A DNA stretch of 64,000 nucleotides from an uncultured Acidobacteriota bacterium (GCA_963747605.1 CAVVGA010000012.1:119471-183470); one strand, 5' to 3'. Shown: positions 5,271 through 20,165, counted from the first letter of the stretch. Notes: generated by a model from the letters alone, not told the origin. Program-made: numbers and translations.

Positions 5271-6203
5271 TCACTTCTGCGAATTCAAGAATTTCTGGAC
5301 TTCGCGGGCTGTGGGCATGGAGGGTTGCGCGCCGTTACGGGTGACGGAGATGGCGGCTACCGCGGACCCGTAGCGGGCGGCTTCGCGGGGCTTTTTGCCG
5401 GAGAGCAGGCTGACGGCGAGGCCGGCGTTGAAGGCGTCGCCGGCGGCGGTGGAGTCGATTGCTTTTACTGCGAAGGATGGAACCATTTCGCGGATGCCGT
5501 CGGCTGTGGCGATGAACGCGCCCTGCGCTCCCATTTTGATTACGACATTTTTGGGCCCGCGCGCGAGGAGAAGATCAGCGCAGCGCGCGGCTGTTTCGGG
5601 CGTCACCGGCTCGGTCGGCGGGAGGCCGCAAAGAATGCGCGTCTCGCTTTCGTTGGGCGTGATCCAGGCAGTGACTTGTAGGAGGCCGCTGGGCAATTCG
5701 CGCGCGGGGGCGGGATCGAGCATCAGCGGGATTTTGTAGCGATGCGCGAAGGCGCCTAGAGTTTCGAGAGTGATGAGGGGGATTTCGAGTTGCGCGAGAA
5801 TCATTCCGGCTTTGCGGAGTAACGCGGAATGCGCGCTGATGTCTTTCGGGAGCAGCTTGCCGTTGGCGCCAGGGACTACGACGATATTGTTCTGGCCGTC
5901 GCTGCCTATATTGATGAGCGCGACGCCGGAGGAGCCTTTTACGGTGCGGACGGATTGCACGGCGACGCCGGCGGCGCGCAAGGCATTTTTCAGCGCGCCG
6001 CCGAAGGAATCGTCGCCGACATTTCCTACCATGCTGACTGGGTGGTCGAGTTTCGCGACGCCCACGGCTTGATTTGCGCCTTTGCCGCCGTGGAAGGTGC
6101 GGAAATCCTTGCCGATGATGGTTTCGCCGGGGAGGGGGACGTGATCGGCGGTGGCGACCAGGTCGAGATTGACGCTGCCTACGACGACTATTGGCTTACG
6201 CAT
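5271..6203 (-). CDS. rbsK: ribokinase (PfkB family)
   Basis: Intact 310-aa ORF. It carries VVVGSVNLDLV, GGKGANQAVG and the C-terminal DSTAAGDAFNAG anion-hole/ATP motif typical of ribokinase. Confidence 0.85.
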   Translation of the reverse strand: MRKPIVVVGSVNLDLVATADHVPLPGETIIGKDFRTFHGGKGANQAVGVAKLDHPVSMVGNVGDDSFGGALKNALRAAGVAVQSVRTVKGSSGVALINIGSDGQNNIVVVPGANGKLLPKDISAHSALLRKAGMILAQLEIPLITLETLGAFAHRYKIPLMLDPAPARELPSGLLQVTAWITPNESETRILCGLPPTEPVTPETAARCADLLLARGPKNVVIKMGAQGAFIATADGIREMVPSFAVKAIDSTAAGDAFNAGLAVSLLSGKKPREAARYGSAVAAISVTRNGAQPSMPTAREVQKFLNSQK

Positions 6204-6378: not shown

Positions 6379-6547
6379 AAATCCTTTGCACGCATTTTTC
6401 CGCGAACAGTTCAGCGGATAAGGCTACCATCAACTGCCTGGAGCGTCGCAAGTGGGTTCTGGGATTTCCGGGCGTGCGGATAGGTGCACGGCGCTGGGCG
6501 GTCGTGCTAATCTTTGGTGAAGTTTCGCGCGGTTTTCTGACGACTTT

Positions 6548-6587
6548 GCCTGGGTGGCGGAATAGCATACGCTGAGGACTTAAAATC
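6548..6587 (+). pseudogene. 5' half of an intron-less tRNA-Leu(UAA) (remnant / att-like copy)
   Basis: The sequence is GCCTGGG TG GCGGAATAGCATACGC T GAGGA CTTAAAA TC: acceptor 5' strand, Leu-type D arm, and anticodon stem plus loop with UAA. It matches exon 1 of the intact gene at 8056 at about 34 of 40 positions. It reads through the splice junction as CTT-AAAATC (no intron). Similarity stops 2 nt into the 3' strand of the anticodon stem. Confidence 0.6.
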
Positions 6588-6720
6588 GTATTTTTTGTTT
6601 CACGTGAAACATATAAATACAGCACAATCATATAGTTATCGACATTTTGTCGCGTTACGGTATCCTTACACAACTCTTTCACATTCTCGCTTTTTGAAGG
6701 AGTAGGGGAGGGCGTCCGTA

Positions 6721-7881
6721 ATGCCCGAGCAATACACCATCCTCGGTGGAAAAGTTCACGTCTACAAACGTCCTCACAGCACTCTCTGGCAGTGCTCCAC
6801 TTATTTCGCCGGCAAAAATCGTCGCACCAGCACAAAAGAAGAGAGTATCTCGAAAGCCAAAGAGGTTGCGGAGGATTGGTTTCTGCAGCTCCGCGGAAAA
6901 CTTCGCAGCGGAGAAATCAAGACAGAAAAAACTTTTCGCGAAGCGTCCGAACAATTCCTGCGCGAATACGACATTATCACGCAGGGGCAACGCAGCAAGG
7001 ACTATATCAGAGGCCAACACTCAAGGTCGCAGTTGCATCTGGTGCCGTTCTTCGGCGCTATGGGCCTTTCCGAAGTAACGGCCGGCAAGGTTCAGGAATA
7101 CCGCATTCACCGCCACGAGGAAACCCAGGCGAAACGCGGAAAACCGCCGGCTCACAACACCATGCATCAGGAAACCGTAACTCTTCGCCAGACCCTGAAA
7201 ACCGCCGTCCGTCACGGCTGGCTGGACCGCCTTCCCGATCTCTCCGAGCCGTACCGATCATCGCCGAAAATTTCGCACAGGGCGTGGTTCTCGCCGGAGG
7301 AATACAAAAAACTCTACGACGCCACGCGAAAGCGTGCACATCAACCAAAGCAGGCGCGCTTCCGGTGGGAATCGGAGCAGCTTCACGACTATGTTCTCTT
7401 CTCCGCAAACACGGGGCTCCGGCCCGATGAGGCACGGCGGCTGCAATTTCGCGACGTGACAATCGTTGAAGACGAAGCGAGCGGTCAGACCATCCTTGAA
7501 ATCGAAGTCAGAGGGAAGCGCGGTGTCGGGTACTGCAAGAGTATGACGGGCGCTGTGCGCCCGTTCGAACGCCTGAAAGCACGGCCCCGGCCGGCCGCAA
7601 CTGACGGTCCGCGGGAAGAAGGGAAGGGTGCTGAAACCGCAAAAACCGATTCGGCCAAACTCCGCCTGCCGCAGCCGACAGAGCTTATCTTTCCGAAATG
7701 GCAGCGTGAGATTTTCGACGCGGTTCTTGAAGAGGAAAACCTGAAGTTCGACAGGGAAGGGCGGCCGCGAACGGCTTACAGCCTGCGGCACACCTATATC
7801 TGTCTTCGCCTGATGGAAGGTTCCGACATCTACCAGATTGCCAAAAACTGCCGCACCAGCGTCGAAATGATCGAGAAATAG
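6721..7881 (+). CDS. tyrosine-type site-specific integrase, terminated by an in-frame TAG just before the expected catalytic Tyr
   Basis: Box I is NTGLRPDEARRLQFRDV and box II is AYSLRHTYICLRLMEG...NCRTSVEMIEK. A TAG follows at 7879..7881. The same frame then continues open for 42 codons (YAAHIKTNLDAAEIN...) to a TAA at 8008..8010. Confidence 0.85.
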   Translation: MPEQYTILGGKVHVYKRPHSTLWQCSTYFAGKNRRTSTKEESISKAKEVAEDWFLQLRGKLRSGEIKTEKTFREASEQFLREYDIITQGQRSKDYIRGQHSRSQLHLVPFFGAMGLSEVTAGKVQEYRIHRHEETQAKRGKPPAHNTMHQETVTLRQTLKTAVRHGWLDRLPDLSEPYRSSPKISHRAWFSPEEYKKLYDATRKRAHQPKQARFRWESEQLHDYVLFSANTGLRPDEARRLQFRDVTIVEDEASGQTILEIEVRGKRGVGYCKSMTGAVRPFERLKARPRPAATDGPREEGKGAETAKTDSAKLRLPQPTELIFPKWQREIFDAVLEEENLKFDREGRPRTAYSLRHTYICLRLMEGSDIYQIAKNCRTSVEMIEK

Positions 7882-8055
7882 TACGCGGCACACATCAAGA
7901 CGAATCTTGACGCCGCTGAAATCAACAAAATGAGACCACGGCTGAAAAAGAAACAGAACCAGCCGACGCGAAAGCTACCGCAACATCCGGCCCCGGAAAC
8001 CGACGTGTAAATTTCTGCCGGCTGCACTATGATGAGACCTGCAGCAGAAAGCCAC

Positions 8056-8385
8056 GCGGGCGTGGCGGAATGGCATACGCAGCGGACTTAAGGAAAACTT
8101 GAGTGCTCGCCGGGAAACCGGCGATGCAGAACTGCCCAAAGTCGGGGGAACCTGAAATGGCAATCCCGAGCCAAGCCTCGACGGAAATTCTCGTCAGGAA
8201 GGTGTAGAGACTAGACGGGCAGCGCCTAAACGCCGGACGTTCCGGGGCAGGGTGAAGGGATAGTCCAGACCGCAAACCCGACATCGAGCTGACAGCTCTT
8301 CGTCAGGGCGGCGAAAGCCGCGGACGGTAAGAAAATCCGCAGGGCTTCACAGCTCGTGTGGGTTCGACTCCCACCGCCCGCACCA
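8056..8385 (+). tRNA. tRNA-Leu(UAA) gene interrupted by a group I intron (exon 1 8056..8089, exon 2 8332..8385, CCA encoded)
   Basis: Joined exons give a canonical cloverleaf. Acceptor GCGGGCG/CGCCCGC, D arm GCG-GAATGGCATA-CGC, anticodon stem GCGGA/TCCGC, loop CTTAAAA (anticodon UAA). There is a long variable arm, T arm GTGGG-TTCGACT-CCCAC, discriminator A and CCA. Confidence 0.85.
8090..8331 (+). ncRNA. group I intron (tRNA-Leu(UAA)/IC3-like), 242 nt, inserted between U34 and A35
   Basis: P1 can form between ACTT|AAG (8086..8092) and CTTGAGT (8098..8104), with a U-G wobble at the 5' splice site. The last intron base is G (8331). There are GAAA-capped stems (CGCCGG-GAAA-CCGGCG, GGCGGC-GAAA-GCCGC). 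The core segments GGCAATCCCGAGCCAAGCC and GGAAGGTGTAGAGACTAGACGGGCAGCGCCTAAACG match, from memory, the conserved core of cyanobacterial/plastid tRNA-Leu introns. Confidence 0.8.
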
Positions 8386-8428
8386 TCCTTCTCGCGTCCC
8401 GTCTTCGCAATTCCCGTGAATTTCATCA

Positions 8429-8788
8429 TCACTCCGCCGCTACGGAAACCCGCGCTCGTTTACAGCCCCGCCGGCTCAGGCACAATTCTGCGATGGATCT
8501 ATGAAGATTCTGCCGCCTTAACATAGACCGGCTGCGCAACGATCTGTTTCCCCATAGCGTAAAACCACGCAACATCAGGGCCATAGTGAGGGCATTGGAC
8601 ACGAGGAAACCGAACTGGCCTGCCATCGCCGCGACTGAGAAACCGCACAAGGCGGCGAGCGCGCTGAGGACGAAGCCCATGCGGTTCTGATTTGTGACTA
8701 GCCAAGTCCCAGTCATGCCGAAGATCATCGTCATCCAGTCCAGGCCGTAATAGCTAGACAGGGACTCCAGAAAAGCATCAAACATCAA
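8429..8788 (-). CDS. small membrane protein, function unknown (possibly a truncated transporter fragment)
   Basis: 119-aa ORF with about three hydrophobic helices (DWMTMIFGMTGTWLV, GFVLSALAALCGFSVAAMAG, FLVSNALTMALML). The Arg-rich C-terminal 40 aa look non-native. It abuts the 3' end of the tRNA. Confidence 0.4.
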   Translation of the reverse strand: MMFDAFLESLSSYYGLDWMTMIFGMTGTWLVTNQNRMGFVLSALAALCGFSVAAMAGQFGFLVSNALTMALMLRGFTLWGNRSLRSRSMLRRQNLHRSIAELCLSRRGCKRARVSVAAE

Positions 8789-8993
8789 GCCTCACTACGT
8801 CATAGCCGATAGTCAAAGCTTAAGACAAAGAGATTACGGAACCATTAAGAGCGGAGATTTTGTCGCGAGCGCGGACGCGAAATGGGGTCACCGCACAACG
8901 GTGAGATTCATGAAACTGGCTAAGCTGCAAGAAACCTCTGTAACATTAATAGTTTGCGGAAAATAAGACGCTTTCTAAGACTGGGTGTTTCAA

Positions 8994-9009
8994 AATTAAC
9001 ATTATCACA
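8994..9009 (+). repeat. 16-nt exact direct repeat AATTAACATTATCACA (copy 1); on the minus strand it reads as an extended -10-like TGTGATAAT
   Basis: Identical 16-mer at 12048..12063. A 12-nt sub-match (ATTATCACATCG) lies at 10303..10314. Confidence 0.5.
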
Positions 9010-9203
9010 CCGGCGGTTGTTCTTGATTTGTCCTCGCCGCTGTAACTCACCAGGCTTTTGGCCTCTCTTGATAACACAATCTGTGATCTCACACCGCGAT
9101 GGCCTCGATATCGACTCTACGTCTGTATTCTTCAAGCTTCTTGGCGCACGAGTCACAACATGCTACGGTCCCCAAAGTTCGTGATGAATGTGGGGTACAG
9201 GCT

Positions 9204-9437
9204 ATGGAAAAAATTCCTGCAGAAGATCTTGGAAAGCGCCTGCCGGAAATTCTGGAACGGATCGCCCGCGGTGAGCATTTCACTATCACCGATCGCGGCA
9301 GGTCCGCCGCTGAGCTGGGGCCCGTCGAAGAACCAGTTCCGGCGAAGGCTGCTGTGGAAACGATCCTTGATATTCAAAGGCGCGTCAAACCGCTTGGTGT
9401 TCCTATGCGTGAGGCGATCGAAGAAGGCCGCGCGTGA
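9204..9437 (+). CDS. type II antitoxin, Phd/YefM-like (partner of VapC)
   Basis: 77 aa from the ATG at 9204 within ORF 9099..9437 (MEKIPAEDLGKRLPEILERIARGEHFTITDRGRSAAEL). Its stop overlaps the start of the downstream PIN gene (GTGA). Confidence 0.75.
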   Translation: MEKIPAEDLGKRLPEILERIARGEHFTITDRGRSAAELGPVEEPVPAKAAVETILDIQRRVKPLGVPMREAIEEGRA

Positions 9438-9844
9438 ATCTGGTTCTCGATGCCTCAATGGCGGCTTCCTGGTGCTTTCCGGACGAGCGAACCGACCTGA
9501 CGCAGCGGCTACTAAACGACCTGGCTGGCCCGGAAGCAGCCGCGGCCCCTCGAATGTGGGCCTACGAAAATCGCAACGTCATCCTTCGCGGCGTGCGGCA
9601 AGAACGCCTCGGACATAGAGATGCGGCGGCTTTTTTGGAGTCGCTTACAGCGTTGCAAATCCGCTTGCTTGACCCACCTTATAACGCAGTCTTTCAGGCT
9701 GCGGTCCGCTTCGATCTGAGTTTTTACGATGCAGCCTACCTAGAACTTGCTGTGCGGGAAAACTTGCCCCTGGCGACGCTGGACAAGCAACTGCGCCGTG
9801 CGGCATTGGCAGCTAACGTTGCCGTGTACGGAGAAGGCCGATAG
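9434..9844 (+). CDS. vapC: PIN-domain ribonuclease toxin VapC
   Basis: 136 aa. It has an N-terminal VLDAS acidic motif and FYDAAYLELA plus LATLD, typical of PIN/VapC. There is a 4-nt start/stop overlap with the antitoxin. Confidence 0.85.
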   Translation: MNLVLDASMAASWCFPDERTDLTQRLLNDLAGPEAAAAPRMWAYENRNVILRGVRQERLGHRDAAAFLESLTALQIRLLDPPYNAVFQAAVRFDLSFYDAAYLELAVRENLPLATLDKQLRRAALAANVAVYGEGR

Positions 9845-9850
9845 TTCTAA

Positions 9851-9881
9851 CGTTTGAAGTTCCAATTTGGAACCTCAAACG
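9851..9881 (+). terminator. strong hairpin downstream of vapC (possible terminator, no clear U-tract)
   Basis: CGTTTGAAGTTCC-AATTT-GGAACCTCAAACG, with 12 of 13 stem positions paired. Confidence 0.35.
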
Positions 9882-9960
9882 GGCCGGGTCATCGGCGGCC
9901 TGCGCGGTCTAGCTGATTCCGATCCCGGCTCGTACGACACAGTAGAGAATTAGCCCCAGC

Positions 9961-10287
9961 ATGAAAAGTACGTGCTTCTATTGCGACCTCCCGTTGCGCG
10001 ACCCCGATATACCGGACGCAGTCGCGCTGAGCTGGTTCGGCAGCCGTTCCGGCGGCCCGGGTTCACGAAAGCTCCTGCGATATTTAAGAACCACCACCGA
10101 GCATCTAATCCGCAAGACCGACGGCGGATTGGATGACCCATTAAATCTCACGCGCGCTCACAACTATTGCAACACCACTCGCGGAGAACGCTCAGTTTCT
10201 GAACACAAGGCTTACATATTGCGTTCTCTGTCTGACGGCTCTCACCCGTTTTCCGCATTTCAACCATCGTCGTTTCGCGCACGCTAA
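9961..10287 (+). CDS. small HNH-type endonuclease-like protein
   Basis: 108 aa. It has CFYC near the N-terminus and then TTEHLIRKTDGGLDDPLNLTRAHNYCN, i.e. the H...N...H/CxxC(N) pattern of HNH nucleases. Confidence 0.65.
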   Translation: MKSTCFYCDLPLRDPDIPDAVALSWFGSRSGGPGSRKLLRYLRTTTEHLIRKTDGGLDDPLNLTRAHNYCNTTRGERSVSEHKAYILRSLSDGSHPFSAFQPSSFRAR

Positions 10288-10302
10288 ATTCTCACCATCT
10301 TT

Positions 10303-10314
10303 ATTATCACATCG
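10303..10314 (+). repeat. ATTATCACATCG, third (partial) copy of the island repeat
   Basis: It shares 12 nt with 12055..12066. It lies between the convergent HNH and Sel1 genes. On the minus strand it reads CGATGTGATAAT. Confidence 0.35.
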
Positions 10315-10393
10315 AAATTTTGGACGCAGTTTCAACCACTGTGCAAGTCACCAAATTGAAAGCCGATTGTTAGACGAACGGGACGGAAACCTG

Positions 10394-12049
10394 TCACTTC
10401 CTGTCTAAGTGATTTTCTTCCAGGAATTCAGACACGTCGCGTGCGACCGCATCTCTTTGTTTTGTGTTCAGCTTCTTCTCAAGTGCCCCGTTATCACGTG
10501 GACAGTCTTTGTCGATGATGATGAGGCTCGGATGTGGTCCCTCGTCGGCACAGATTCTTAGCCAATAGTAGGCTTGCCTGTAGCGTTTGTGCTTCAGGGC
10601 GAACTCGCATAGACGGAATTGCGCGTGGTGGTTTCCCTGCGCGGCCGCGAGCGCATAAAGACGATTCGCCTCCTGTTTGTCAGCAACCACCCCGCTGCCA
10701 TCAAAGTACCAGTCCGCCATCACCGCTTGCGCGTCGCTGAATCCCTGACCTGACGCTTTCTTCATCAACGCCGGAGCATCTTCAGTGTCGGTCCGCTCGT
10801 AATAAGCGTCATAAGCGATCTCGAATTGCGCTGGTGCGTATCCCATAGCAGCCAACCTTTTACGCACGTACGATTCATCGATTAGGCCCATGCTGTCTTC
10901 ATACTTTTGGAGCTGTTCCCTGGCCTCCATATTGCCGTCCTGGGCGATGGGCAAAAGTATGTCTATCGCTTTTCTGTAATCACCCGCATGCAGTGCTTCC
11001 TCGCCATCTTGGATCGTGAAAGTTTTCGGTCTCAGGTACCACCATAAAGCTGTCGCACAAATGACCGACACGCCAATTCCGATTAAGGCGTTCCTCCGGT
11101 GTCGTTTCGGGCCCGGGACGTTCCAAAACGCAGAGCGAGGCTCGGTCTGGGCCTCGGTGCCTGGGCTGTTTTCCAGGAAATCATTCTCTGCCAAGATCGC
11201 CATAATGTCGGAACGGAGAGTCGTCAATAAAGCGTTTGGAAACCACCTAGACATTTTTGCCCACGCGGAAATACAACATGGTACTGCGCCAAGGAGAACG
11301 ACTGCGGTGAGCAACGTTACTACCCTGGCCCCGGTACCATCCTCACTTCCGAACAATTGAAATATCCCGGAGATTCCGACCAGGGACAGCGCGCTAATCG
11401 TCAGAATATTCCGTAGTTCAGACTTTCGTTCGATTGCCACATCGACCGAGGCAATATAAGGTGCTGGTTCCTCCGTCAGTTTCAGTGTTGGCGAAGGGGT
11501 GGTCTCCCGGACGGTCTTCAACCTAAACCTAGCCGATACGTCACACGCGCAAAGTGAATCGCGATAGACTTGCGTTCGGAATAGATATCGCTGATCGGCG
11601 TAGTCATTGATTTCCGCCCCACGCCCGGCAGGGAATCGCTCCGTCAGAAGCTCTTTAACTTGGTCCCGGACTTTCTTAACGAGGTCGGCACTCGGAGGGG
11701 TTGCAAGCCCTACAGAAAAAGCTTTCCGCGACGAAAAGGCAGCCGCTTCGGCCTTGTCCACCGCTTCGATAACTTCTGATCCGCCCTCCTCAAAAACATG
11801 GACCAGCCAAACGAATACAAACAACGAGCAAAATGCGAAGAAACTTGCGGTTCCCGCATTTTTCTGTGAGAACTGCTTGATCGTCTCTAACAGAACGCCG
11901 AAGAGGGCTCCAATTCCTAAGACTTTCTTCAACATGCGATGCCGCTCGGGTTTGATGAAGTCGAACGCATAGGTCGTCAAACGAACAGCGAGGGCACGAC
12001 CGGAGGTCCGCCCTGACAGTCCCCCTGCTCGGCAGAATATTTTCCGCAA
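10394..12049 (-). CDS. multi-pass membrane protein with C-terminal Sel1-like repeats, function unknown
   Basis: 551-aa ORF. The likely true start is M39 at 11935 (MLKKVLGIGALFGVLL). There are several hydrophobic helices. The C-terminus carries Sel1/TPR-like units (AQAVMADWYFDGSGVVADKQEANRLYALAAAQGNHHAQFRL). Confidence 0.7.
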   Translation of the reverse strand: MRKIFCRAGGLSGRTSGRALAVRLTTYAFDFIKPERHRMLKKVLGIGALFGVLLETIKQFSQKNAGTASFFAFCSLFVFVWLVHVFEEGGSEVIEAVDKAEAAAFSSRKAFSVGLATPPSADLVKKVRDQVKELLTERFPAGRGAEINDYADQRYLFRTQVYRDSLCACDVSARFRLKTVRETTPSPTLKLTEEPAPYIASVDVAIERKSELRNILTISALSLVGISGIFQLFGSEDGTGARVVTLLTAVVLLGAVPCCISAWAKMSRWFPNALLTTLRSDIMAILAENDFLENSPGTEAQTEPRSAFWNVPGPKRHRRNALIGIGVSVICATALWWYLRPKTFTIQDGEEALHAGDYRKAIDILLPIAQDGNMEAREQLQKYEDSMGLIDESYVRKRLAAMGYAPAQFEIAYDAYYERTDTEDAPALMKKASGQGFSDAQAVMADWYFDGSGVVADKQEANRLYALAAAQGNHHAQFRLCEFALKHKRYRQAYYWLRICADEGPHPSLIIIDKDCPRDNGALEKKLNTKQRDAVARDVSEFLEENHLDRK

Positions 12050-12063
12050 TTAACATTATCACA
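12048..12063 (+). repeat. 16-nt exact direct repeat AATTAACATTATCACA (copy 2), candidate promoter of the Sel1 gene when read on the minus strand
   Basis: Identical to 8994..9009. The reverse complement TGTGATAATGTTAATT contains TG-n-GATAAT. Confidence 0.5.
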
Positions 12064-12387
12064 TCGCAGAATTCGCCAGAATTATGGCCGCAATTTCCTT
12101 CGTCATTGCCTCAAGTGGAAGCACTGCCGGGAAAAGAATCTTCAGGTTCTTGCCGATGTCCACACGCATCCGGACAACTACATCAGTCAAAGTTCAATCG
12201 ACCAGCGAAATCCCATGATCCCGGTGAAGGGTCACACCGCCATAATCGTCGCTAATTTCGGGCGGACCGGTTGGTGGTCGCTTTCCACTGTCGGCGTATA
12301 CGAGTATCTGGGCGATTTCAAATGGCGCACGCACGGCGCATCCCAAAAACCTCGCCGGGTCAGTCTGGTTGCCTGGTGAATTTTGAA

Positions 12388-13785
12388 ATGAACGAGCCTG
12401 AAGCGCGTATTTCCCGAATCTCGAAAGTTCTCATTGACCGCGATCAGATGACGACGGACGCGGTATTGGCGCGGAGGAAACTGTACAGGGTCGCACTGCG
12501 GTGCGGACCCGACGTCGCGCGATCGCGCACTCTGCAGCTCGCCGTGCTGACAGCGGCCAACATTGCGAATCGCTGTTTTCCGGGCGCCGTCAAGATCGTG
12601 CTTGAGCCAAGCCTGAAGAACGCCTCGCTCCTGCTCTGGCCCTCACTCGAACAAACCTTCGGACAGACGCTCATCAGTCTTCTCGGGCCGGATGTGCTGA
12701 TATCGCCGGACAATTTCGAGCCGGATGGCCCGGTTCTGCTTTTCGGCGACGTTCCGTCCACGCCGCATGCGTTGCGCGTCACGTTCGACGGGTGGGTCGC
12801 GAAAGTCGGTCCCGCCGAAGCCGTAAGCCCCCTGCCTCAGCGGGAGTATTGCTCGCTGGCGGGCGTTCTGGCGGCCGCTCTGGCGATCGCCGAATTATTT
12901 TTTTCGTTCGCCGAGATCAGCATTGAAGCAACCCGACGAACCGTCGGACTGTCGCTGTGGCGACCCGACCTCGACATCAATGATCCAGCAGCGCTCGGAA
13001 TTCAGGTCCAATTTCTTCCGCGTGAAGTATGGGCCTTGGGCCTGGGACATCTCGGCAATGCTTATCTCTGGTCGCTCGCGACACTGCCGTATGCAGATCC
13101 GGGAACCGTTGAAGTGTCCCTGAACGATTTCGACAGGATCGAGCCCGACAACGCGGATACCAGCCTGCTTTTTGATGCCGGCGACGAAGGATCATACAAG
13201 ACGCGCGTATGTTGCCGGTGGCTTGAAGCCCGTGGCTTTCGGACCAGGCTGATCGAGCGCCCCTTCGATTCTAATTTCCGCTGCCGCATCGAGGAGCCCA
13301 GGCTGGCGCTTTGCGGTTTCGATTCGAATGAGGTGCGCAGAGAGCTTGCAACCGCCGAATTTCGTCGCGTCATGGAAAGCGGTTTGGGTGGAACCGCAAA
13401 CAACTTCGATACGATCAGTTTTCACACGCTGCCGAACCCGCGCAGCATCGAAGAATTGTGGCCTGTCCCCACGGCAGATGAAAAAAATGCACAAGCGCAA
13501 GAGCTGGAAAGAATGGCGCGGGAAAACCCTGCTTACGCCCGGCTCGATGACAATGATTGCGGCCGTGCCGCGCTCGCGGGAAAATCCGTCGCCGTCCCGT
13601 TCGTCGGCGCCGCCGCCGCGACTATAGTTCTTGCCGAGGCAATCAGGCTCTTACATGGAGGACCGGCGTACACCGATATCAAGCTCGTGCTTTCAGACCT
13701 CACCAGGAGATTCGCCCAAACGGAGCGCAACTATGCGGCGCAGGATCTCGCGGGATTTAAATATTCAGCAGGCCGGGTGCAGTGA
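12388..13785 (+). CDS. E1-like / ThiF-family adenylyltransferase, orphan (no Ubl, E2 or JAB partner seen)
   Basis: The ORF track gives 12271..13785; the likely start is the ATG at 12388 (MNEPEARISR). The Rossmann motif is VWALGLGHLGNAYLW. It is followed by LNDFDRIEPDNADTS, KTRV, CGFDSNEVRR and AVPFVGAAAATIVLAEAIRLL, as in E1 adenylation domains. The N-terminal ~200 aa resemble an inactive half-domain. Confidence 0.7.
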   Translation: MNEPEARISRISKVLIDRDQMTTDAVLARRKLYRVALRCGPDVARSRTLQLAVLTAANIANRCFPGAVKIVLEPSLKNASLLLWPSLEQTFGQTLISLLGPDVLISPDNFEPDGPVLLFGDVPSTPHALRVTFDGWVAKVGPAEAVSPLPQREYCSLAGVLAAALAIAELFFSFAEISIEATRRTVGLSLWRPDLDINDPAALGIQVQFLPREVWALGLGHLGNAYLWSLATLPYADPGTVEVSLNDFDRIEPDNADTSLLFDAGDEGSYKTRVCCRWLEARGFRTRLIERPFDSNFRCRIEEPRLALCGFDSNEVRRELATAEFRRVMESGLGGTANNFDTISFHTLPNPRSIEELWPVPTADEKNAQAQELERMARENPAYARLDDNDCGRAALAGKSVAVPFVGAAAATIVLAEAIRLLHGGPAYTDIKLVLSDLTRRFAQTERNYAAQDLAGFKYSAGRVQ

Positions 13786-13958
13786 GTCCGCAGTCCATGC
13801 AATCGTTCTTCGCGCGCCAGCCGCTCCGAGCCGACGAGGACAACAACTCTGGCGTCGTCGGCTTCACCGACATCGCCAGCGTGCACAGGTATCCATAAGA
13901 ATTTTGAACATACCGTGCTCCTCGATCCGTTAAACGAACTCAGTATTGGTGGAGAAAT

Positions 13959-14543
13959 CTATGACCGCGCGAATGCCAGCAGCGGACCGATGTCGTGGTT
14001 GTCGGCGGCCTGCAGTGCAGTGATATAGCGCTGGCGCATCGCGCCGGCATCCTGCAGGTTGGCGCGGCCCCACGAGAACCGCTCACCGCCGAGCTTCATC
14101 ACCAGAAGATCCGCCATCAGGCGGGCATGGCGGCCGTTGCCGTTCGGAAAGGGATGAATCTGCACCAGCCGGTGATGGAAGCGCACGGCGATCTCGTCGG
14201 GCGGATATGCCTTGTACTCGATCCACGCCTTGGTGTCGTCAAGCAATTGGCGTAGCGCGACGGGAATCTCATAGAAGGGAATCCCGAGATTGCGTTCGCT
14301 CGTCCTGAACTCGCCCGCCCAGCGCCACACGTCGCCGAGCATGCGCCCGTGCAGATCCTTGATGAATTTCTCGCTCAGCGGATCACGAGGGCGGTTGAGC
14401 GCCCAGTCCTGCGCGCGCGCGATATTCTCCTGCTCGGCCTCGTTCAGTTCGCGGCGATAGGCGATATGCGCGGGGATCAGGTCGCGCTTTTCCTCTGGCG
14501 TCAGCGGTGTCGCATCGTCCGGCTGCTCGAAAAGATCGCTCAA
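13959..14543 (-). CDS. Fic-domain protein ('mobile mystery protein B' type)
   Basis: 194 aa with the Fic motif HPFPNGNGRHARL. It sits directly downstream of an XRE-type partner. Confidence 0.85.
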   Translation of the reverse strand: MSDLFEQPDDATPLTPEEKRDLIPAHIAYRRELNEAEQENIARAQDWALNRPRDPLSEKFIKDLHGRMLGDVWRWAGEFRTSERNLGIPFYEIPVALRQLLDDTKAWIEYKAYPPDEIAVRFHHRLVQIHPFPNGNGRHARLMADLLVMKLGGERFSWGRANLQDAGAMRQRYITALQAADNHDIGPLLAFARS

Positions 14544-14546
14544 CGG

Positions 14547-15003
14547 CTAGTCCCAGAACAGTCGCGGATTCGTCTCGCGCACGATTTCATCGAGCCGCGC
14601 TTCGGCGTTTTTCGCCGGCACCTTCTGGTCCTCCAGCAACATCGAGTGCTCGACCGGCCCCCGGCGCTTCTGCGCGAACGCGCGCGCGCGCGTCGCGGAT
14701 GGTGCTTTCCAGCGGTTTGTTCGGCACGAGCGCATACACAAGCGTGCAGTCGAGCGCCTCGGCCACGCGCCGCAGCGTCGCCAGTTCGATGGTGCCCTTC
14801 GCCTCGGATTGTTCGAGTGCCACGAGGGAAGGCTGCTTGATCCCCAGCCGCTTCGCGAGCTGCGCTGTTGACATGCCGAGCGCCTCCCGGATAGCCTTGA
14901 TCCAGCCGCGGACGGGCGCAGCATAGCGGCTCGCCGGGCCCATTTCCCTGAAACGTTCGTCGAGTTGCGAGCGGGATTGAGTAGCAAGTCTGGCTTTTTT
15001 CAT
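14547..15003 (-). CDS. XRE-family HTH protein ('mobile mystery protein A' type), one frameshift
   Basis: The N-terminus lies in ORF 14587..15003 (GWIKAIREALGMSTAQLAKRLGIKQPSLVALEQ). The C-terminus lies in ORF 14547..14987 (VEHSMLLEDQKVPAKNAEARLDEIVRETNPRLFWD). The frames switch near the (GC)n run at about 14680..14700. Confidence 0.75.
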
Positions 15004-15012
15004 AGGTCACAT

Positions 15013-15084
15013 CCTATTGCTAGCATATATTCCAATAGACCATAACCTATCGTAACAGTGTATGTCAATAGGCTATAGGCTATC
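15013..15084. promoter_or_regulatory. AT-rich region with about six iterated CCTAT/ATAGG half-sites upstream of the XRE/Fic pair (candidate operator/promoter)
   Basis: CCTATTG (15013), CCAATAG (15032), CCTAT (15046), CAATAGG (15066), and tandem TAGGCTA-TAGGCTA (15069..15082). Confidence 0.3.
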
Positions 15085-15448
15085 AGAATTTTAATCGGGC
15101 TCTCTCGCCGCCAAGCAGAGCATTTTGCAAAACCTTATAATAAGGACCATTTGTTGCGTGCCCGGCTTGTCGTCGGCCGGGCTTTACGCGCCCTTCGGGC
15201 TCCCCGAGCCTCTCGTCTCGGCCATCCGGTGACAATCCCTCACGCGAGAAAGCGGGGCGTGCCGCCCCCTCCCGTCAAGCACTGGACGCGAAGCGCGGGC
15301 CGAGGGGTGTCCCCCGCCTTCCTCCGCGATGCTCCGTGCAGGCCGGGTGATCCCCCTCCCCTCGTCCCGGTGCTGGACGGAAGTCCCCGCTCATTGGCGC
15401 TGGCCTAGCAGGGTTGCATGCCAACCCCGTCAGCAAGGAGAGAAGCCC

Positions 15449-15814
15449 GTGAGTGATGAGAAAGCAAAACAGATTGCGGAAATGAACGACCGTTTCCGGC
15501 TGAATTTCTACGTGCCGTGTTTCGGGCCCCGGGCCGTTCCCGGACACATTGTGTGCACCGCCGGGATCGCGGCGCTGCCGCCGGAGACGCAGATATCGAT
15601 CTGGGCGCAAGTTGCAGACTTTGACGATTTCACGGAAGACGACATCTACGGCGAGCACGATTTCGGAGCTTTCAGAATGGAAGGCGTCCCGGAAAAGATT
15701 TTCTGGAAGATCGACTATTACGCTGACAAATCCTGCGCGACCGGCTCCGAAGATCCTGCCGATCCGGCACAGACGTTCAGCGTGCTCACCATCATGCTGG
15801 CGTCGGAGTATTGA
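15449..15814 (+). CDS. DUF3768-family protein (common on plasmids/ICEs)
   Basis: GTG start at 15449, preceded by AAGGAGAGA. The sequence SDEKAKQIAEMNDRFR...GEHDFGAF...FWKIDYYADKSCATGSEDPADPAQTFSVLTIMLASEY matches my memory of DUF3768 proteins. Confidence 0.85.
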   Translation: MSDEKAKQIAEMNDRFRLNFYVPCFGPRAVPGHIVCTAGIAALPPETQISIWAQVADFDDFTEDDIYGEHDFGAFRMEGVPEKIFWKIDYYADKSCATGSEDPADPAQTFSVLTIMLASEY

Positions 15815-15817
15815 GTC

Positions 15818-15961
15818 ATGACCGCAGAAAACGCCGCCTTCAATCCCGCCGTCGCCGGCATCGCCATGGCCGTCGCCACCGCCGCCACCACCATCACCGA
15901 CAACAGCACCAGCAGCAACAGCACCACCACCATCACCACCATGATGATGGAGAAATCGTAA
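15818..15961 (+). CDS. possible 47-aa Thr/Ser/Ala-rich micro-ORF in a (CAN)n low-complexity tract
   Basis: MTAENAAFNPAVAGIAMAVATAATTITDNSTSSNSTTTITTMMMEKS. The ATG lies 3 nt after the DUF3768 stop. Its TAA overlaps the next ATG (TAATG). It is not in the ORF track (shorter than 60 aa). Confidence 0.2.
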   Translation: MTAENAAFNPAVAGIAMAVATAATTITDNSTSSNSTTTITTMMMEKS

Positions 15962-16275
15962 TGGACAACTACCGCACTGAACGGCTGACATGGCAGGGAA
16001 TCGTTATCGAAGTCCGCTACGACCCGGACTGGCTTGAGTCTTACCGCGAGACCTACGGTTATCCCCTCGCCCATCTTGAAATCGAATCAATCACTCCGGC
16101 GAAGGCGCCGCTGCCGATGACCGAGACCGGCTACCGCTCATGGTTCGGAGCGCCTGCCGATTTGGAGTCAGACGGCGGCCCTGTCGAATTCGTGCGCCTG
16201 TGGCTCGAACATGAAGCCCGGTCCGATTCATGGAAAGCCGCGCAGGCAGAGCGCCGCCAGCTCACGCTTTTCTGA
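15961..16275 (+). CDS. hypothetical protein (104 aa)
   Basis: MDNYRTERLTWQGIVIEVRYDPDWLESYRETYGYPLAHLEIE... has ordinary composition from the ATG at 15961. The upstream part of ORF 15811..16275 is a His/Arg/Gln-rich artefact-like extension. Confidence 0.55.
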   Translation: MDNYRTERLTWQGIVIEVRYDPDWLESYRETYGYPLAHLEIESITPAKAPLPMTETGYRSWFGAPADLESDGGPVEFVRLWLEHEARSDSWKAAQAERRQLTLF

Positions 16276-16598
16276 TTTGTCCAACGGTAATCGCAGCCCG
16301 TCCGTCGTTTCCCGCGATGCGGACGTGCGGCCCAGCACACCGTGAAGATTGTCGTCACTCCTCCCGACACTTACTTACCGTGATTTTGGCGCGATACATC
16401 CGCCTTCTTTTTCCCACCCTTTCTCCTGGGCACGGCTTCGGGATAATTCCTGCGCCCGGCGGTTTCGGTGCCTCTGCTTTTCCGGTTCCTCCCGTAAATC
16501 GTCGGGTCCCTCCCGAAATGCGGCCCCTCGCCTTGGGAGCAGTATCCGCTCGCTTTTGGGGTGCCCCATCGAAGAGGGCAGAAAAAGGAGAAACACAG

Positions 16599-17024
16599 AT
16601 GTATCTCAACACGATCCAAATCATCGGCTTTGTCGGAAAAGATCCGGAGCGACGCCAGCTTCAGGGCAAGGACGCCGCGTACACCGTCTTCTCGGTCGCC
16701 ACGCAGCGTTCATGGAAAAACGCGCAAGGCGAGTGGCAAAAGCGGACCGAATGGCACCGCGTTGTGGCGTGGAGCAAGCTCGGCGAAATCGCTACCGCGC
16801 AGCTCCGCAGCGGCGATCACGTTCACGTCCAGGGCCGACTTGTCAGCAGCACATACGACAAGTACTACGGCAACGGCAAGAAACCGACTGTCGTGAAGCA
16901 AACGTTCTGGCAGGTTCGCGCCGACGCGATGCGCAAACTGAATCGGGCTGAATCACACCCCGGTTCAGCGCCCGGCGCTGCAAACCAAGGTCCGTCGAAC
17001 GACGCAGACGCAGCCCCTTTCTGA
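16599..17024 (+). CDS. ssb: single-stranded DNA-binding protein
   Basis: ATG at 16599 preceded by AAAGGAG. The OB-fold sequence is MYLNTIQIIGFVGKDPERRQ...TEWHRVVAWSKLGEIA...GDHVHVQGRLVSSTY. The tail is acidic and ends in PF. Confidence 0.85.
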   Translation: MYLNTIQIIGFVGKDPERRQLQGKDAAYTVFSVATQRSWKNAQGEWQKRTEWHRVVAWSKLGEIATAQLRSGDHVHVQGRLVSSTYDKYYGNGKKPTVVKQTFWQVRADAMRKLNRAESHPGSAPGAANQGPSNDADAAPF

Positions 17025-17040
17025 CATTCCCGCAAACCGG

Positions 17041-17074
17041 GGCCTCGGCATCCGCCGGGGCCCTTGTTTTATTT
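17041..17074 (+). terminator. rho-independent terminator after ssb
   Basis: GGCCTCGGC-ATCC-GCCGGGGCC (9-bp stem with one G-U) followed by CTTGTTTTATTT. Confidence 0.6.
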
Positions 17075-17439
17075 CAGCGCCCGAAACATCCCACTTTCGC
17101 GCGCATGGGCGCGTGGAGCACTTGACCGCTGCGCGCGCCCGCTAAATCGACAGCCCGTCCGCTGAACTCATCAGCGCGGAAGTTCAGCCCCGAACACTGC
17201 GCCGCGATTTTCTTTTTTTCCGTTTCCTTCTGTCTGTTGTCAATCCTTGGCTCAGTTTGCCGGACCTGCCGCCGTCGTCAACGGGCGCCCGCGCCAGGCA
17301 ACCGTGTAACCCGTTGACCCCGGCGCCATACCGGTCCGGCCTTTTCCTCGTCATCGACCGCAACCAGGGAAAGGAAAAACCATGACCACTACGCAACCCG
17401 AACCGTTCCAAGAGCGGCACCGGCGGGCTCGTCACAGCC

Positions 17440-18498
17440 TTGCGTCCGGTCCCTCGCCGCGTGCCGCACTTCTTTTCGAACCTGCTCCCCGAAGGACATC
17501 TCCGCCCATATTTGGCAAAGCTGGCCGAGGTCAAGCCCGAGCGTGAATTCTTTTTGCTCGCCGTCCTGGGCGCCGACCTGCCCGGCGCGCTCGTCGTCAC
17601 GCCGCTTGAAAGCGACGCGTATGAAGGCGACGCTCATGACGCCGCCGGCGGCGGCGATCATCATGATCGTCCCCCCAAAACCGCTCTGCGGTTTTCTCTC
17701 GCCGGCGTGCAGTTGAAGTTTTCCGCCGTCATGGAAGCTTCCGGCGGTCTCACGGTTCCAGCCGACGGCATGGGTGGCTCCTGGATTGTCAAACTTCCCT
17801 CTGCCCGCTTTCCCGCCGTCCCTGAAAATGAATTTGTCATGCTTGAGCTTGCGCGGCGCGTCGGCATCGCCGTGCCGCCCAATCGCCTGATCGATATGGC
17901 AAAAATAAAAGGACTGCCGGAAGAAACCCGGACGACGAGAGGCAACGCGCTTGCCGTGCAGCGGTTCGACCGCCTCCCCGGCGGCGACCCCGTTCACATG
18001 GAGGATTTCGCGCAGGTGTTCGGACTCTTTCCCGACGACAAGTACGGCCACCGCAGCTATGCCAATATCGCTTCCGTTCTCTGGGCGGAAAGTGGCGAGG
18101 AGGCCACCTACGAGTTTGTCCGCCGACTCGTTTTCTCCGTGCTGATCGGCAATGCTGACATGCATCTCAAGAACTGGTCGCTTCTCTATCCCGACCGGCG
18201 GACGCCCGTTCTGTCGCCGGCCTACGATTTTGTTGCAGCGCTGCCGTACATTCCCGGCGACACACTTGCCCTGGCTTTCGGCGGCAGCCGCAGTCTTAAC
18301 GAAATCACAACCGACCAGATGCGGAGCTTTGCCGACACTGCAAGAATTCCGGCAAGCCCGCTCTGGCAGATTGCGGTCGAGACCGCAGAGCGCACGGTCG
18401 CGAGCTGGAAAATGCTCGAACTGGCGGACCGGCTCCCTAAAGAAATGCGTGCCTCCATCGACAAACAGATTCTGACGGTCGCCGCCACCATAAAGTGA
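17440..18498 (+). CDS. HipA-family Ser/Thr kinase toxin, N-terminally short, no HipB/HipS neighbour
   Basis: HFFSNLLPEGHLRPYLAKL, FSLAGVQLKFS, and NADMHLKNWSLLYPD (kinase catalytic loop). An ATG with an RBS at 17382 is in another frame, so either there is a frameshift near 17420..17430 or the start is non-ATG. In either case only ~20-30 aa precede the LLPEG motif. Confidence 0.8.
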   Translation: MRPVPRRVPHFFSNLLPEGHLRPYLAKLAEVKPEREFFLLAVLGADLPGALVVTPLESDAYEGDAHDAAGGGDHHDRPPKTALRFSLAGVQLKFSAVMEASGGLTVPADGMGGSWIVKLPSARFPAVPENEFVMLELARRVGIAVPPNRLIDMAKIKGLPEETRTTRGNALAVQRFDRLPGGDPVHMEDFAQVFGLFPDDKYGHRSYANIASVLWAESGEEATYEFVRRLVFSVLIGNADMHLKNWSLLYPDRRTPVLSPAYDFVAALPYIPGDTLALAFGGSRSLNEITTDQMRSFADTARIPASPLWQIAVETAERTVASWKMLELADRLPKEMRASIDKQILTVAATIK

Positions 18499-18706
18499 CG
18501 AGAAATGTCGGGACGACAAAGCGATTACAATTCCGTCTCTGACGATACTAAGCACAAATATCATCCTGAATATAAATGACAGGATCGACTGCGGTGCTTA
18601 GGCAGACCTTTTCAGACCGTCCGAAGGAGCGCTCGTCTACAAGCTGTTCATCGGCGCGCAGCATCACACGAACGTCAGCCAGGGACTGACCGATCAGGAA
18701 AACGAT

Positions 18707-18729
18707 GTCGACCCCCACCCCGGGCACCA
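18707..18729 (+). pseudogene. putative 3'-terminal remnant of a tRNA (T-loop, T-stem 3' strand, acceptor 3' strand, ACCA)
   Basis: GTCGACC CCCAC CCCGGGC A CCA. The T-stem strand CCCAC is identical to that of the intact tRNA-Leu. CCCGGGC pairs (one G-U) with GCCTGGG of the 5' remnant at 6548 and not with the intact gene's acceptor. Confidence 0.4.
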
Positions 18730-19277: not shown

Positions 19278-20165
19278 TCACTTTTTTTGCAGGGCGGGGA
19301 CTATGGCGGAGAAATCCCTATCGCCATAGCCGGCCGCGATGGCTTTTTCGAAATCGGCGATGGCTGGGGCGGCGGTGTTCATGGCCACGCCGTGGCGCGC
19401 GCCTTCTTCGCGCGCGTACGCGAGATCTTTTGCCATCAGGCGCAGGACGAAATTGGGCGTGAAGTCTCCAGAGGCGGCGCGGGTGGTTAGGATTTTCAGC
19501 AGCGGACTGCCAGGGGCTCCGGCGGTTAGCACTGCAACCGATTTTTCTCTATCTAGTCCACTGGCGGTGAGCAGGGCCATCGCTTCGGCCAGTGATGCGG
19601 CTTGCACCCCGCAGAGAAAATTATTAATGAGCTTCAGGGTTGCGCCGCTGCCGATGGGACCGAGATGCAGTACCTCGCGGCTCATTACGACCAGGACGGG
19701 TCGCACGGCCGCCAGAGCTTCGGCGGAGCCTCCGACCAGAAAAAGCAATTCGCCGGCAGCGGCTTGTGGTTTCGAGCCGGTTACCGGAGCGTCGAGGAGT
19801 TCGCATTCGTGTTTCTGTGCGGCGGCGGCCAGTTCGTGAATCCATTGGACACTTGCAGTACTGGATTCGACGAGCCATGTGCCGGGAGCGGCTGCGGCTA
19901 GCGCGCCGGTTTCTTGATCTAGCCAGACGGCGCGCGAGGCGTTGTCGTCGGCGAGCATACTGATAATGATATCGGCGCGCCCGGCGGCATCGCGGGGAGT
20001 GCGGGCGACGTAGGCGCCGGCTTTCGCGAAGGGCGCGGTTTTTTCCGGATTGCGGTTGTACACGGCTAGCGGAAATCCCGCAGTGAGAACGCGCCCTGCC
20101 ATTCCCCCGCCCATCAGTCCTAATCCTAGAATTGCTACACGCGGCTTGGTCATTGCCCGATTCAC
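19278..20165 (-). CDS. NAD(P)-dependent oxidoreductase, 3-hydroxyisobutyrate/6-phosphogluconate dehydrogenase-like
   Basis: 295 aa with the N-terminal Rossmann motif VAILGLGLMGGGMAG. The overall pattern is that of beta-hydroxyacid dehydrogenases. Confidence 0.8.
   Translation of the reverse strand: MNRAMTKPRVAILGLGLMGGGMAGRVLTAGFPLAVYNRNPEKTAPFAKAGAYVARTPRDAAGRADIIISMLADDNASRAVWLDQETGALAAAAPGTWLVESSTASVQWIHELAAAAQKHECELLDAPVTGSKPQAAAGELLFLVGGSAEALAAVRPVLVVMSREVLHLGPIGSGATLKLINNFLCGVQAASLAEAMALLTASGLDREKSVAVLTAGAPGSPLLKILTTRAASGDFTPNFVLRLMAKDLAYAREEGARHGVAMNTAAPAIADFEKAIAAGYGDRDFSAIVPALQKK

Follow-up and report, generated by a model that had tools for sequence, protein, structure and literature searches.

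A split tRNA-Leu(UAA) gene and its probable intron-bearing replacement in an uncultured acidobacterium

Islands and prophages that target transfer RNA (tRNA) genes are reportedly sorted by sublocation within the gene, with crossover in the anticodon loop or in the T loop, and elements are also said to enter the 5′ portion of such a gene in reversed orientation. The present study concerns a stretch of 64,000 nucleotides from an uncultured soil bacterium of the Acidobacteriota (GCA_963747605.1 CAVVGA010000012.1:119471-183470), referred to as a whole as the window, in which a resident intron-less tRNA-Leu(UAA) gene was very probably split by site-specific integration and replaced by an intron-bearing gene carried by the incoming element. 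The closest described behavior is the tRNA-dependent lysogeny of actinobacteriophages, for which passages of Guerrero-Bustamante & Hatfull 2024 (mBio, PMC10865867) describe a tyrosine integrase, an attachment site (attB) in an essential tRNA gene with a common core of ~10 bp, a host tRNA gene that stays disrupted, and compensation for its loss by a tRNA carried on the element. The group I introns of bacterial tRNA-Leu(UAA) genes have in turn been catalogued by phylum, among them a class designated 'Leu.3Ug' (Williams 2020, bioRxiv 10.1101/2020.01.27.920355).

Remains of the resident gene and its replacement

The window belongs to a 192-kb contig of a draft assembly (5.5 Mb, 39 contigs, estimated completeness 74%), and the features on which the argument turns are as follows (coordinates counted from the first letter of the window; same-genus genomes carry handles such as G023).

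6548–6587, plus strand: resident intron-less tRNA-Leu(UAA) gene, 5′ half (agreeing with the tRNA of relatives at 37/40 positions)
6591–6616, no strand assigned: imperfect palindrome at the left end of the element (repeat search; hairpin −8.9 kcal/mol, z −3.45)
6721–7881, plus strand: tyrosine integrase (phrog_1 integrase, E 1.4e-27)
8056–8089, plus strand: 5′ exon of the element-borne tRNA-Leu(UAA) gene (intron-aware ARAGORN; spliced exons fold)
8090–8331, plus strand: group I intron of 242 nucleotides (nt), between U34 and A35 (Rfam RF00028)
8332–8385, plus strand: 3′ exon of the element-borne gene, including CCA (ARAGORN, fold)
18708–18729, plus strand: 3′ end of the resident tRNA-Leu(UAA) gene (22/22 identical to G023)
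6405–6547, plus strand: native upstream (promoter) region of the resident tRNA gene (73–81% to G023, G049, G169 and G178)
5271–6203, minus strand: PfkB-family sugar kinase (rbsK-like), the chromosomal left flank (Pfam PF00294, E 3.5e-65)
19278–20165, minus strand: 3-hydroxyisobutyrate-dehydrogenase-like (3-HIBDH-like) gene, the chromosomal right flank (Pfam PF03446 and PF14833)

The left fragment (GCCTGGGTGGCGGAATAGCATACGCTGAGGACTTAAAATC, 40 nt) comprises the acceptor 5′ strand, the D arm, the 5′ strand of the anticodon stem and, as its 3′ end, the anticodon loop plus 2 nt (CTTAAAATC, 6579–6587), directly followed by unrelated AT-rich DNA. A preliminary description of this DNA had read it as the acceptor strand, D arm and UAA anticodon loop of a tRNA gene, an assignment upheld by the match at 37/40 positions to the intact 5′ half of close relatives, which are mutually invariant over these 40 nt. 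One of the three substitutions, C4 to T, gives rise to a single G-U pair in the acceptor stem. The right fragment (TCGACCCCCACCCCGGGCACCA) runs from the T loop (TCGACC) through the T-stem 3′ strand, the acceptor 3′ strand and A73 to CCA, and agrees with the tRNA 3′ end of close relatives at 22/22 positions; it had been placed at 18707–18729, of which 18708–18729 is indeed the tRNA 3′ end and the G at 18707 is not tRNA-derived. A 19-mer of this fragment occurs once in the 5.5-Mb assembly and not at all in the reversed control. The suggestion that the right-hand sequence might prove to belong to a conserved element, coding or otherwise, was not borne out, since a tRNA 3′ end is followed there by a short native-like flank, and the peptides of open frames spanning the right junction have no homologues.

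Between the two fragments 26 nt of the tRNA middle are missing, and this middle was not found anywhere in the assembly. Joined alone, the fragments give no tRNA fold; supplemented with the 26-nt middle of G023, they form a tRNA-Leu(UAA) of 88 nt whose 7-bp acceptor stem includes one U-G pair, so that the pairing proposed earlier between CCCGGGC and GCCTGGG along all seven positions holds. Neither strand pairs with the intron-bearing gene, whose acceptor is GCGGGCG/CGCCCGC. On the outer side of the left fragment, approximately 6405–6547 is homologous to the DNA directly upstream of the tRNA gene, or of its 5′ fragment, in relatives, and the ~20 nt 3′ of the right fragment resemble the relatives' native flank (a weak match, judged by eye). 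Native flanking sequence on both outer sides indicates that the fragments stand in place and are not imported copies, and both are read as remnants of one resident intron-less tRNA-Leu(UAA) gene.

An intact counterpart of this gene is found at the syntenic position in relatives. Six genomes of the genus, the first to be examined, each have an intact tRNA-Leu(UAA) gene without intron downstream of a PfkB kinase homologue. The closest relatives by flank identity are G023, G049, G169, G174 and G178, in which the syntenic kinase is 81–86% identical at the nucleotide level; in these five genomes a single contig holds the kinase on the upstream side of the tRNA gene and, 2.2–27 kb downstream of it, the 3-HIBDH-like gene, the 5′ half reads GCCCGGG...GGACTTAAAATC in 5/5, and the 3′ end equals the right fragment in 5/5. 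Across relatives the 3-HIBDH-like gene is 80–88% identical in nucleotides and lies 0.3–27 kb downstream of the tRNA gene, the smallest gap (0.3 kb) being that of G177, which covers the 3-HIBDH-like side only. The comparison of synteny called for by the preliminary description thus yielded an intact tRNA-Leu(UAA) gene (GCCCGGG...CCCGGGCACCA) between the PfkB and 3-HIBDH-like sides, on one contig in five genomes, and the claim that the resident gene was split with loss of its middle is sustained by the 26 nt missing relative to this intact gene. The composition profile agrees, GC skew being positive in both flanks and approximately zero or negative over 6.5–18.5 kb. No further tRNA-Leu(UAA) gene, intact or intron-less, was found elsewhere in the draft assembly.

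The left fragment represents the left attachment site (attL) of an integrase element, with CTTAAAATC as the crossover core. The integrase expected beside such a junction is in place at 6721–7881, and its reading frame stops at a TAG (7879–7881) one codon before the conserved YY motif containing the catalytic tyrosine, the TAG replacing the first Tyr. Thus, the window protein ends ...EMIEK, followed after the stop by YAAHIKTNLDAAEIN, vs. ...EMIEKYYA.H in 68/79 relatives, and the frame remains open beyond the TAG to 8010 (42 further codons). The relatives typically measure 425–432 amino acids (aa) and conserve an HxxR box together with the C-terminal YY motif. As assembled, the window integrase is probably cut short before its catalytic tyrosine and dead. 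The palindrome at 6591–6616 (TTTTTTGTTTCACGTGAAACATATAA) directly follows the attL core, and is a candidate protein-binding site of the left arm or, alternatively, a terminator for the truncated tRNA transcript. The same split end point appears in G019 and G020, while G023 possesses a separate 5′ fragment that is 2 nt shorter (CTTAAAA).

The replacement gene begins ~175 bp past the integrase stop. Intron-aware ARAGORN reports a tRNA-Leu(taa) at 8056–8385 with a 242-nt intron after position 34; joined without it, the exons fold into a tRNA-Leu(UAA) of 88 nt. RF00028 (Intron_gpI) matches 8080–8288 over the full model (1–253; 39 bits, E 4.4e-7). The splice sites read ...GGACTT/AAGG...GGTAAG/AAAATCC (slashes marking exon boundaries), the last base of the intron being G, and a P1 hairpin (ACUUAAG/CUUGAGU, −8.1 kcal/mol, z −4.2) pairs the last exon base, U8089 (U(−1)), with a G. 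This is the sole tRNA-Leu(UAA) gene in the assembly, and it would be spliced to supply the UUA-reading tRNA. The gene that the inserted DNA was said to have brought is present as described, and its functional role may be presumed. Detection of gene and intron required the intron-aware mode of ARAGORN and Rfam matches judged by E-value; across the whole window default ARAGORN returned no tRNA, and Rfam at gathering thresholds neither tRNA nor intron. Default annotation tools would consequently make such genomes wrongly seem devoid of tRNA-Leu(UAA).

Recurrence in the genus and in the integrase family

A survey of 200 species-level genomes of the same genus addressed the distribution of the two gene types; these relatives are non-independent, so counts are given and no statistical test was applied. 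The intron-bearing tRNA-Leu(UAA) gene is present in 12/200 genomes. The intron-less pattern, from anticodon to T arm, is absent in 11 of these 12 and present in 169 of the 188 others, and in the twelfth intron-gene genome (G132) the pattern is matched only via a leftover 3′ half. The intron-bearing and intron-less genes are mutually exclusive across the 200 genomes.

Thirteen copies of the intron-bearing gene were examined for a neighboring integrase. A full-length integrase frame accompanies only the window copy and one G140 copy, the latter frameshifted; C-terminal remnants were recognized by protein comparison in G181, G080, G009, G076 and the other G140 copy, possible remnants in G019 (a short nucleotide match) and G132 (a junction read by eye), and no remnant was detected near the intron gene in G020, G069, G108 and two G115 copies. 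The module occurs together with the shared kinase flank in G009, G019, G020 and G132, whose kinases are more distant (69–71% identical); in the five genomes nearest by flank the resident gene is intact and the module is missing. In addition, the anticodon-stem variant of each remnant is that of its own lineage (GAGGA in the window and G023, GGGGA in G020 and many other genomes). Lineage-specific stem variants and module-free closest relatives favor acquisition of the module by separate integrations, and alternatively one older gain may have been followed by precise excision in some lineages.

Two genomes of this group show the split in other states of preservation. In G020 the halves of the split tRNA-Leu(UAA) gene lie deep inside two large contigs (L016, G020:C5 6866-7365; L021, G020:C8 ~9940-10010). 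The split there is clean (AAAATC followed directly by CCCTGACG...), and the integrase between 5′ half and intron-bearing tRNA gene has been deleted. Such a separation may reflect either an element of very large size or rearrangement at a later time. In G019 (L020, G019:C8 ~10880-10950, minus strand), 2.9 kb upstream of the intron-bearing gene, the 5′ half and core are directly followed by CATTCGACCCATTTGGCAGCACC, which resembles a degenerate segment from T loop to 3′ end, with the same middle missing as in the window.

These distributions bear upon an opposite polarity of events, in which the fragments would be island-borne partial tRNA copies (attP repeats) and the intron-bearing gene the ancestral resident. 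Islands often carry partial tRNA copies, and the left fragment shares 90% identity in its D-arm region with the 5′ exon of the intron-bearing gene. Yet native upstream DNA runs without a break into the left fragment, the flank of the right fragment is native-like (by the same weak match), the acceptor strands of the two fragments are complementary to one another but not to the intron-bearing gene, and that gene is confined to the 12 genomes of 200, an integrase or its remnant adjoining 7/13 of its copies (and those of G019 and G132 by nucleotide match or eye). Contradicted also by synteny, this polarity is highly improbable.

Relatives of the integrase number at least 419 in a scan of representative genomes, of which the best 79 (63–85% identical in protein sequence) were analyzed. 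Their sources are Acidobacteriota, Binatia, Bryobacteraceae, a Nitrospinales metagenome-assembled genome (MAG) and Alphaproteobacteria MAGs, the Acidobacteriota including the cultured Granulicella aggregans M8UP14, which has a full module (L102). In 76/79 loci the integrase start is preceded, at a distance of ~130 bp, by a tRNA-Leu gene or half-gene; 73 of these are split 5′ halves, typically ending CT(T/C)AAAATC with few variants, and the remaining three (L042, L043 and L078) are intact tRNA-Leu(CAA) genes without a spare. The recurrent end point of the 5′ half in 73/79 loci identifies the anticodon loop plus 2 nt as the crossover core, at which the gene is mostly split. The left junction in the window is no accident; it falls at a crossover core conserved throughout a large family of integrases, which do not rebuild their tRNA target. 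A complete 7.9-kb element at L091 has the core at both ends and a full 3′ half at its right attachment site (attR). When the 79 loci were searched for 3′ halves at attR, loose criteria produced false positives and were set aside; strict ones found L091 only, as most elements exceed the 10-kb flank. The sources of these relatives (L035-L113) also include MAGs labeled Rhodopseudomonas and even Saccharimonadales. Such a taxonomic range speaks for extensive horizontal transfer of the family, or else some of the MAGs are mis-binned.

Whether a spare tRNA gene accompanies the integrase depends upon the target. Among loci with enough downstream sequence to be counted, 41 of 44 that split tRNA-Leu(UAA) have a spare, in every case an intron-split tRNA-Leu gene situated mostly ~170–350 bp past the integrase (in a few, several kb away). 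Where tRNA-Leu(CAA) is split, a spare is found in 5 of 22 loci, three intron-bearing (tRNA-Leu(CAA) in L044 and L058, tRNA-Leu(UAA) in L076) and two intron-less; a further intron-less CAA spare, the third, is found in L103, whose contig is not long enough for it to be counted among the 22. As a rule, then, elements splitting tRNA-Leu(UAA) nearly always bring a spare and those splitting tRNA-Leu(CAA) mostly do not. Only tRNA-Leu(UAA) reads UUA, while UUG is readable by tRNA-Leu(UAA) or tRNA-Leu(CAA). The presence of spares by target would fit these decoding capacities, the loss of tRNA-Leu(UAA) presumably not being coverable by another tRNA and tRNA-Leu(CAA) presumably being dispensable.

Why the spare retains its intron could conceivably be explained by the position of the latter, which splits the core (CTT/AAAATC) and might shield the spare from acting as an attB site. 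If true, self-recombination and integration by related elements would be prevented and splicing would still restore the tRNA, and each intron-bearing spare examined reconstitutes the exact core of the target at its exon junction. However, intron-less spares with an intact core exist in the CAA-targeting loci L091, L096 and L103, indicating that shielding is not required, and we regard this explanation as doubtful. As for the module itself, its occurrence in several phyla offers a possible route by which tRNA-Leu group I introns could have spread beyond cyanobacteria.

The same recurrence bears on the notion that the locus is an artefact, mis-assembled or error-ridden, with the real tRNA gene intact. 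A draft, MAG-like assembly of 39 contigs and 74% estimated completeness invites such caution. Nevertheless, the succession of 5′ half with core, integrase and intron-bearing tRNA gene recurs in dozens of independent assemblies, including long contigs and the cultured Granulicella aggregans M8UP14, and both junctions of the window lie well inside the 192-kb contig, so that an artefact has very little to recommend it.

The right junction and the history of the locus

The two junctions are of different form. At the right junction tRNA homology begins in the T loop, while integration of the splitting type should leave the core and the whole 3′ half. No second CTTAAAATC core was found in the island, and no internal remnant of core plus 3′ half in the island or the whole assembly. 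Extra copies of the tRNA 3′ end beginning with (T)TCGACCCCCACCCCGGGCAC, within 1–2 nt of the window junction, are found in 13 genomes of the genus: G070, G118, G122, G142, G157 and G174, in which an intact tRNA-Leu(UAA) gene lies 1.5–25 kb upstream on the same contig; G146 and G164, with the intact gene on another contig; G077, where no intact pattern was found; G186, G205 and G208, each with two tRNA copies, either of which may be the intact gene; and G124. Such 3′ fragments starting in the T loop have the form of the classical scar left by islands with T-loop crossover and restoration of the tRNA, and the right fragment of the window is most likely the distal attR scar of a second, tRNA-restoring island.

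A second class of restoring islands at this tRNA crosses over in the anticodon loop, leaving ...CCGGGGTGA.AGA joined to CTTAAAATC and the 3′ half (G178, G174 and G126; G181 and G132). The junction ...CCGGGGTGAGTGA/CTTAAAATC plus 3′ half in G181 and G132 was considered as an attR of the integrase element and rejected, as G178, G174 and G126 show anticodon-loop restoring islands. No integrase was recognized beside the tRNA in the islands of G070, G157, G174 and G178; for the G142 island open reading frames (ORFs) were listed only, without a family search. A further arrangement is seen in G023 (L013, G023:C3 3190-4540), where a 1.26-kb element made up solely of a tyrosine integrase of 312 aa (PF00589, E 1e-21) separates the intact gene from a displaced native 5′ half, the latter ending in CTTAAAA. 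On either side of the element stands a 38-bp direct repeat of the 5′ half. This is a reversed-orientation integration in which the element supplied the 5′ half. Judged from these junctions, this tRNA gene is a busy integration hot spot at which tandem or composite arrays (G132, G174) are common.

The island interior divides by composition into two blocks.

8386–12000, no strand assigned: lower-GC cargo (0.53–0.56) with PIN-domain protein, HNH nuclease and Sel1-repeat protein (composition, Pfam); probably the remainder of the integrase element, right boundary approximate
12001–18707, no strand assigned: higher-GC cargo (0.58–0.64) with Fic/DOC protein, SSB-like protein and a 391-aa protein (composition, Pfam, PHROGs); probably the remnant of a second, T-loop-integrating island, left boundary approximate

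The step in GC at ~12 kb fits two cargo blocks. We therefore favor, with some reservation, a composite history of two elements with an internal deletion, and consider it probable that split, replacement and composite together describe what took place. A tyrosine-integrase element would have recombined at the anticodon-loop core CTTAAAATC, leaving the 5′ half at 6548–6587; because its attP lacks the rest of the tRNA, the resident gene would be split and not rebuilt. The element would have brought its own complete intron-split tRNA-Leu(UAA) gene, from which self-splicing would then yield the UUA-reading tRNA. Before or after this event, a second, ordinary island would have crossed over in the T loop, rebuilding the tRNA and leaving 18708–18729 as its attR. 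A later deletion would have removed the internal core, the anticodon-stem 3′ strand, the variable arm and the T arm, and presumably also the second integrase, which would have adjoined the deleted remnant of core and 3′ half. The outcome would be 12 kb of composite foreign DNA, in which the integrase stop before the catalytic tyrosine and the lack of an attR core lock the swap in. On this account an essential tRNA gene was exchanged for that of a mobile element, and the host would depend on foreign DNA and a self-splicing intron for reading UUA. The preliminary description had asked for more than one event or a secondary deletion; multiple events are the better option of the two, yet a deletion is needed as well.

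A simpler alternative invokes one element and one deletion, the latter removing the right end of the element, its attR core and the 26 nt, and stopping by chance in the T loop. It needs fewer events, ragged 3′ fragments do occur in decayed copies of relatives (in G132 the variable arm is where the first such fragment begins), and neither a second integrase nor homology to a T-loop island was found in the window. On the other hand, its chance end point would coincide to within 1–2 nt with attR scars in at least 12 genomes of the genus, and GC content differs between 6.6–12 kb and 12–18.7 kb. We consider this alternative rather unlikely, though a genuine competitor of the two-element history.

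Several points weigh against the favored account. The composite history draws on the form of the junction and on composition, no second integrase was found among the island ORFs (Pfam, PHROGs), and the right block has no homology to the T-loop island of any relative. The intron score of 39 bits is below the Rfam gathering score of 50; Williams 2020 (bioRxiv 10.1101/2020.01.27.920355) accepts scores of at least 18–20 bits for an intron inside a split tRNA. Since the assembly is incomplete, a second tRNA-Leu(UAA) gene could sit in its unassembled part, and the integrase TAG as well as the three substitutions of the left fragment could be sequencing errors.

The cargo itself comprises a PIN-domain protein (9434–9844), a small HNH nuclease (9961–10287), a Fic/DOC protein (13959–15010) and an SSB protein (16230–17024); the Fic/DOC protein has an overlapping upstream ORF in a toxin-antitoxin-like arrangement, and the SSB a 120-aa N-terminal extension. 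Compared with all fetched loci, the cargo ORFs share essentially none with other copies of the element. No matches to capsid, tail, terminase or repressor families were obtained, PHROGs being limited to the integrase, the SSB and one family of unknown function. The 391-aa protein (17389–18564, minus strand) was tried as a candidate recombinase and dropped, as it matches no Pfam, PHROGs or NCBIfam family. Its gene has a 91% nucleotide-identical copy in another species (G133) and homologues in 11/200 genomes in unrelated contexts, and may be a small mobile gene, homology ending at the ends of the gene.

Comparison with described systems

The window is clearly a decayed example of a widespread split-and-replace variant of tRNA-targeted integration, and its intron-bearing version was not found in print; literature searches returned no paper linking tRNA-Leu group I introns to integrases or replacement tRNA genes. 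Closest in logic are the actinobacteriophages as portrayed in the relevant passages of PMC10865867, with which the locus shares an integrase beside the attachment site, a short core, a split tRNA gene and a spare of its own. Set against those same passages, it differs in that no phage structural genes are recognized in the window, that the hosts are Acidobacteriota and several other phyla with tRNA-Leu(UAA) or tRNA-Leu(CAA) as target, and that the spare contains a group I intron at the crossover position, the present copy moreover being immobilized.

Classical tRNA-rebuilding islands, whose distal repeat the right fragment matches in form, use the same crossover sites and occupy this same tRNA in many relatives. 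Unlike them, the element whose integrase lies at the left junction leaves the gene unrestored, and the proximal repeat within an intact tRNA and the adjoining integrase that belong to a T-loop island are absent for the right fragment. The reversed-orientation type displaces a native 5′ tRNA fragment to the far side of the element, exactly as seen in G023, and a displaced 5′ fragment is the feature held in common here; the window element departs from that type in bringing a whole independent gene and no matching 5′ half.

The intron, finally, conforms to the Leu.3Ug class in its insertion site (CUU/...g/AAAA), U(−1), terminal G and length of ~240 nt. Williams 2020 draws no link from these introns to integrases or split resident genes, whereas here the intron-bearing gene adjoins an integrase. 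Relative to that catalogue, the locus adds an arrangement in which the integrase targets the intron-less allele and the intron-bearing gene travels alongside it.

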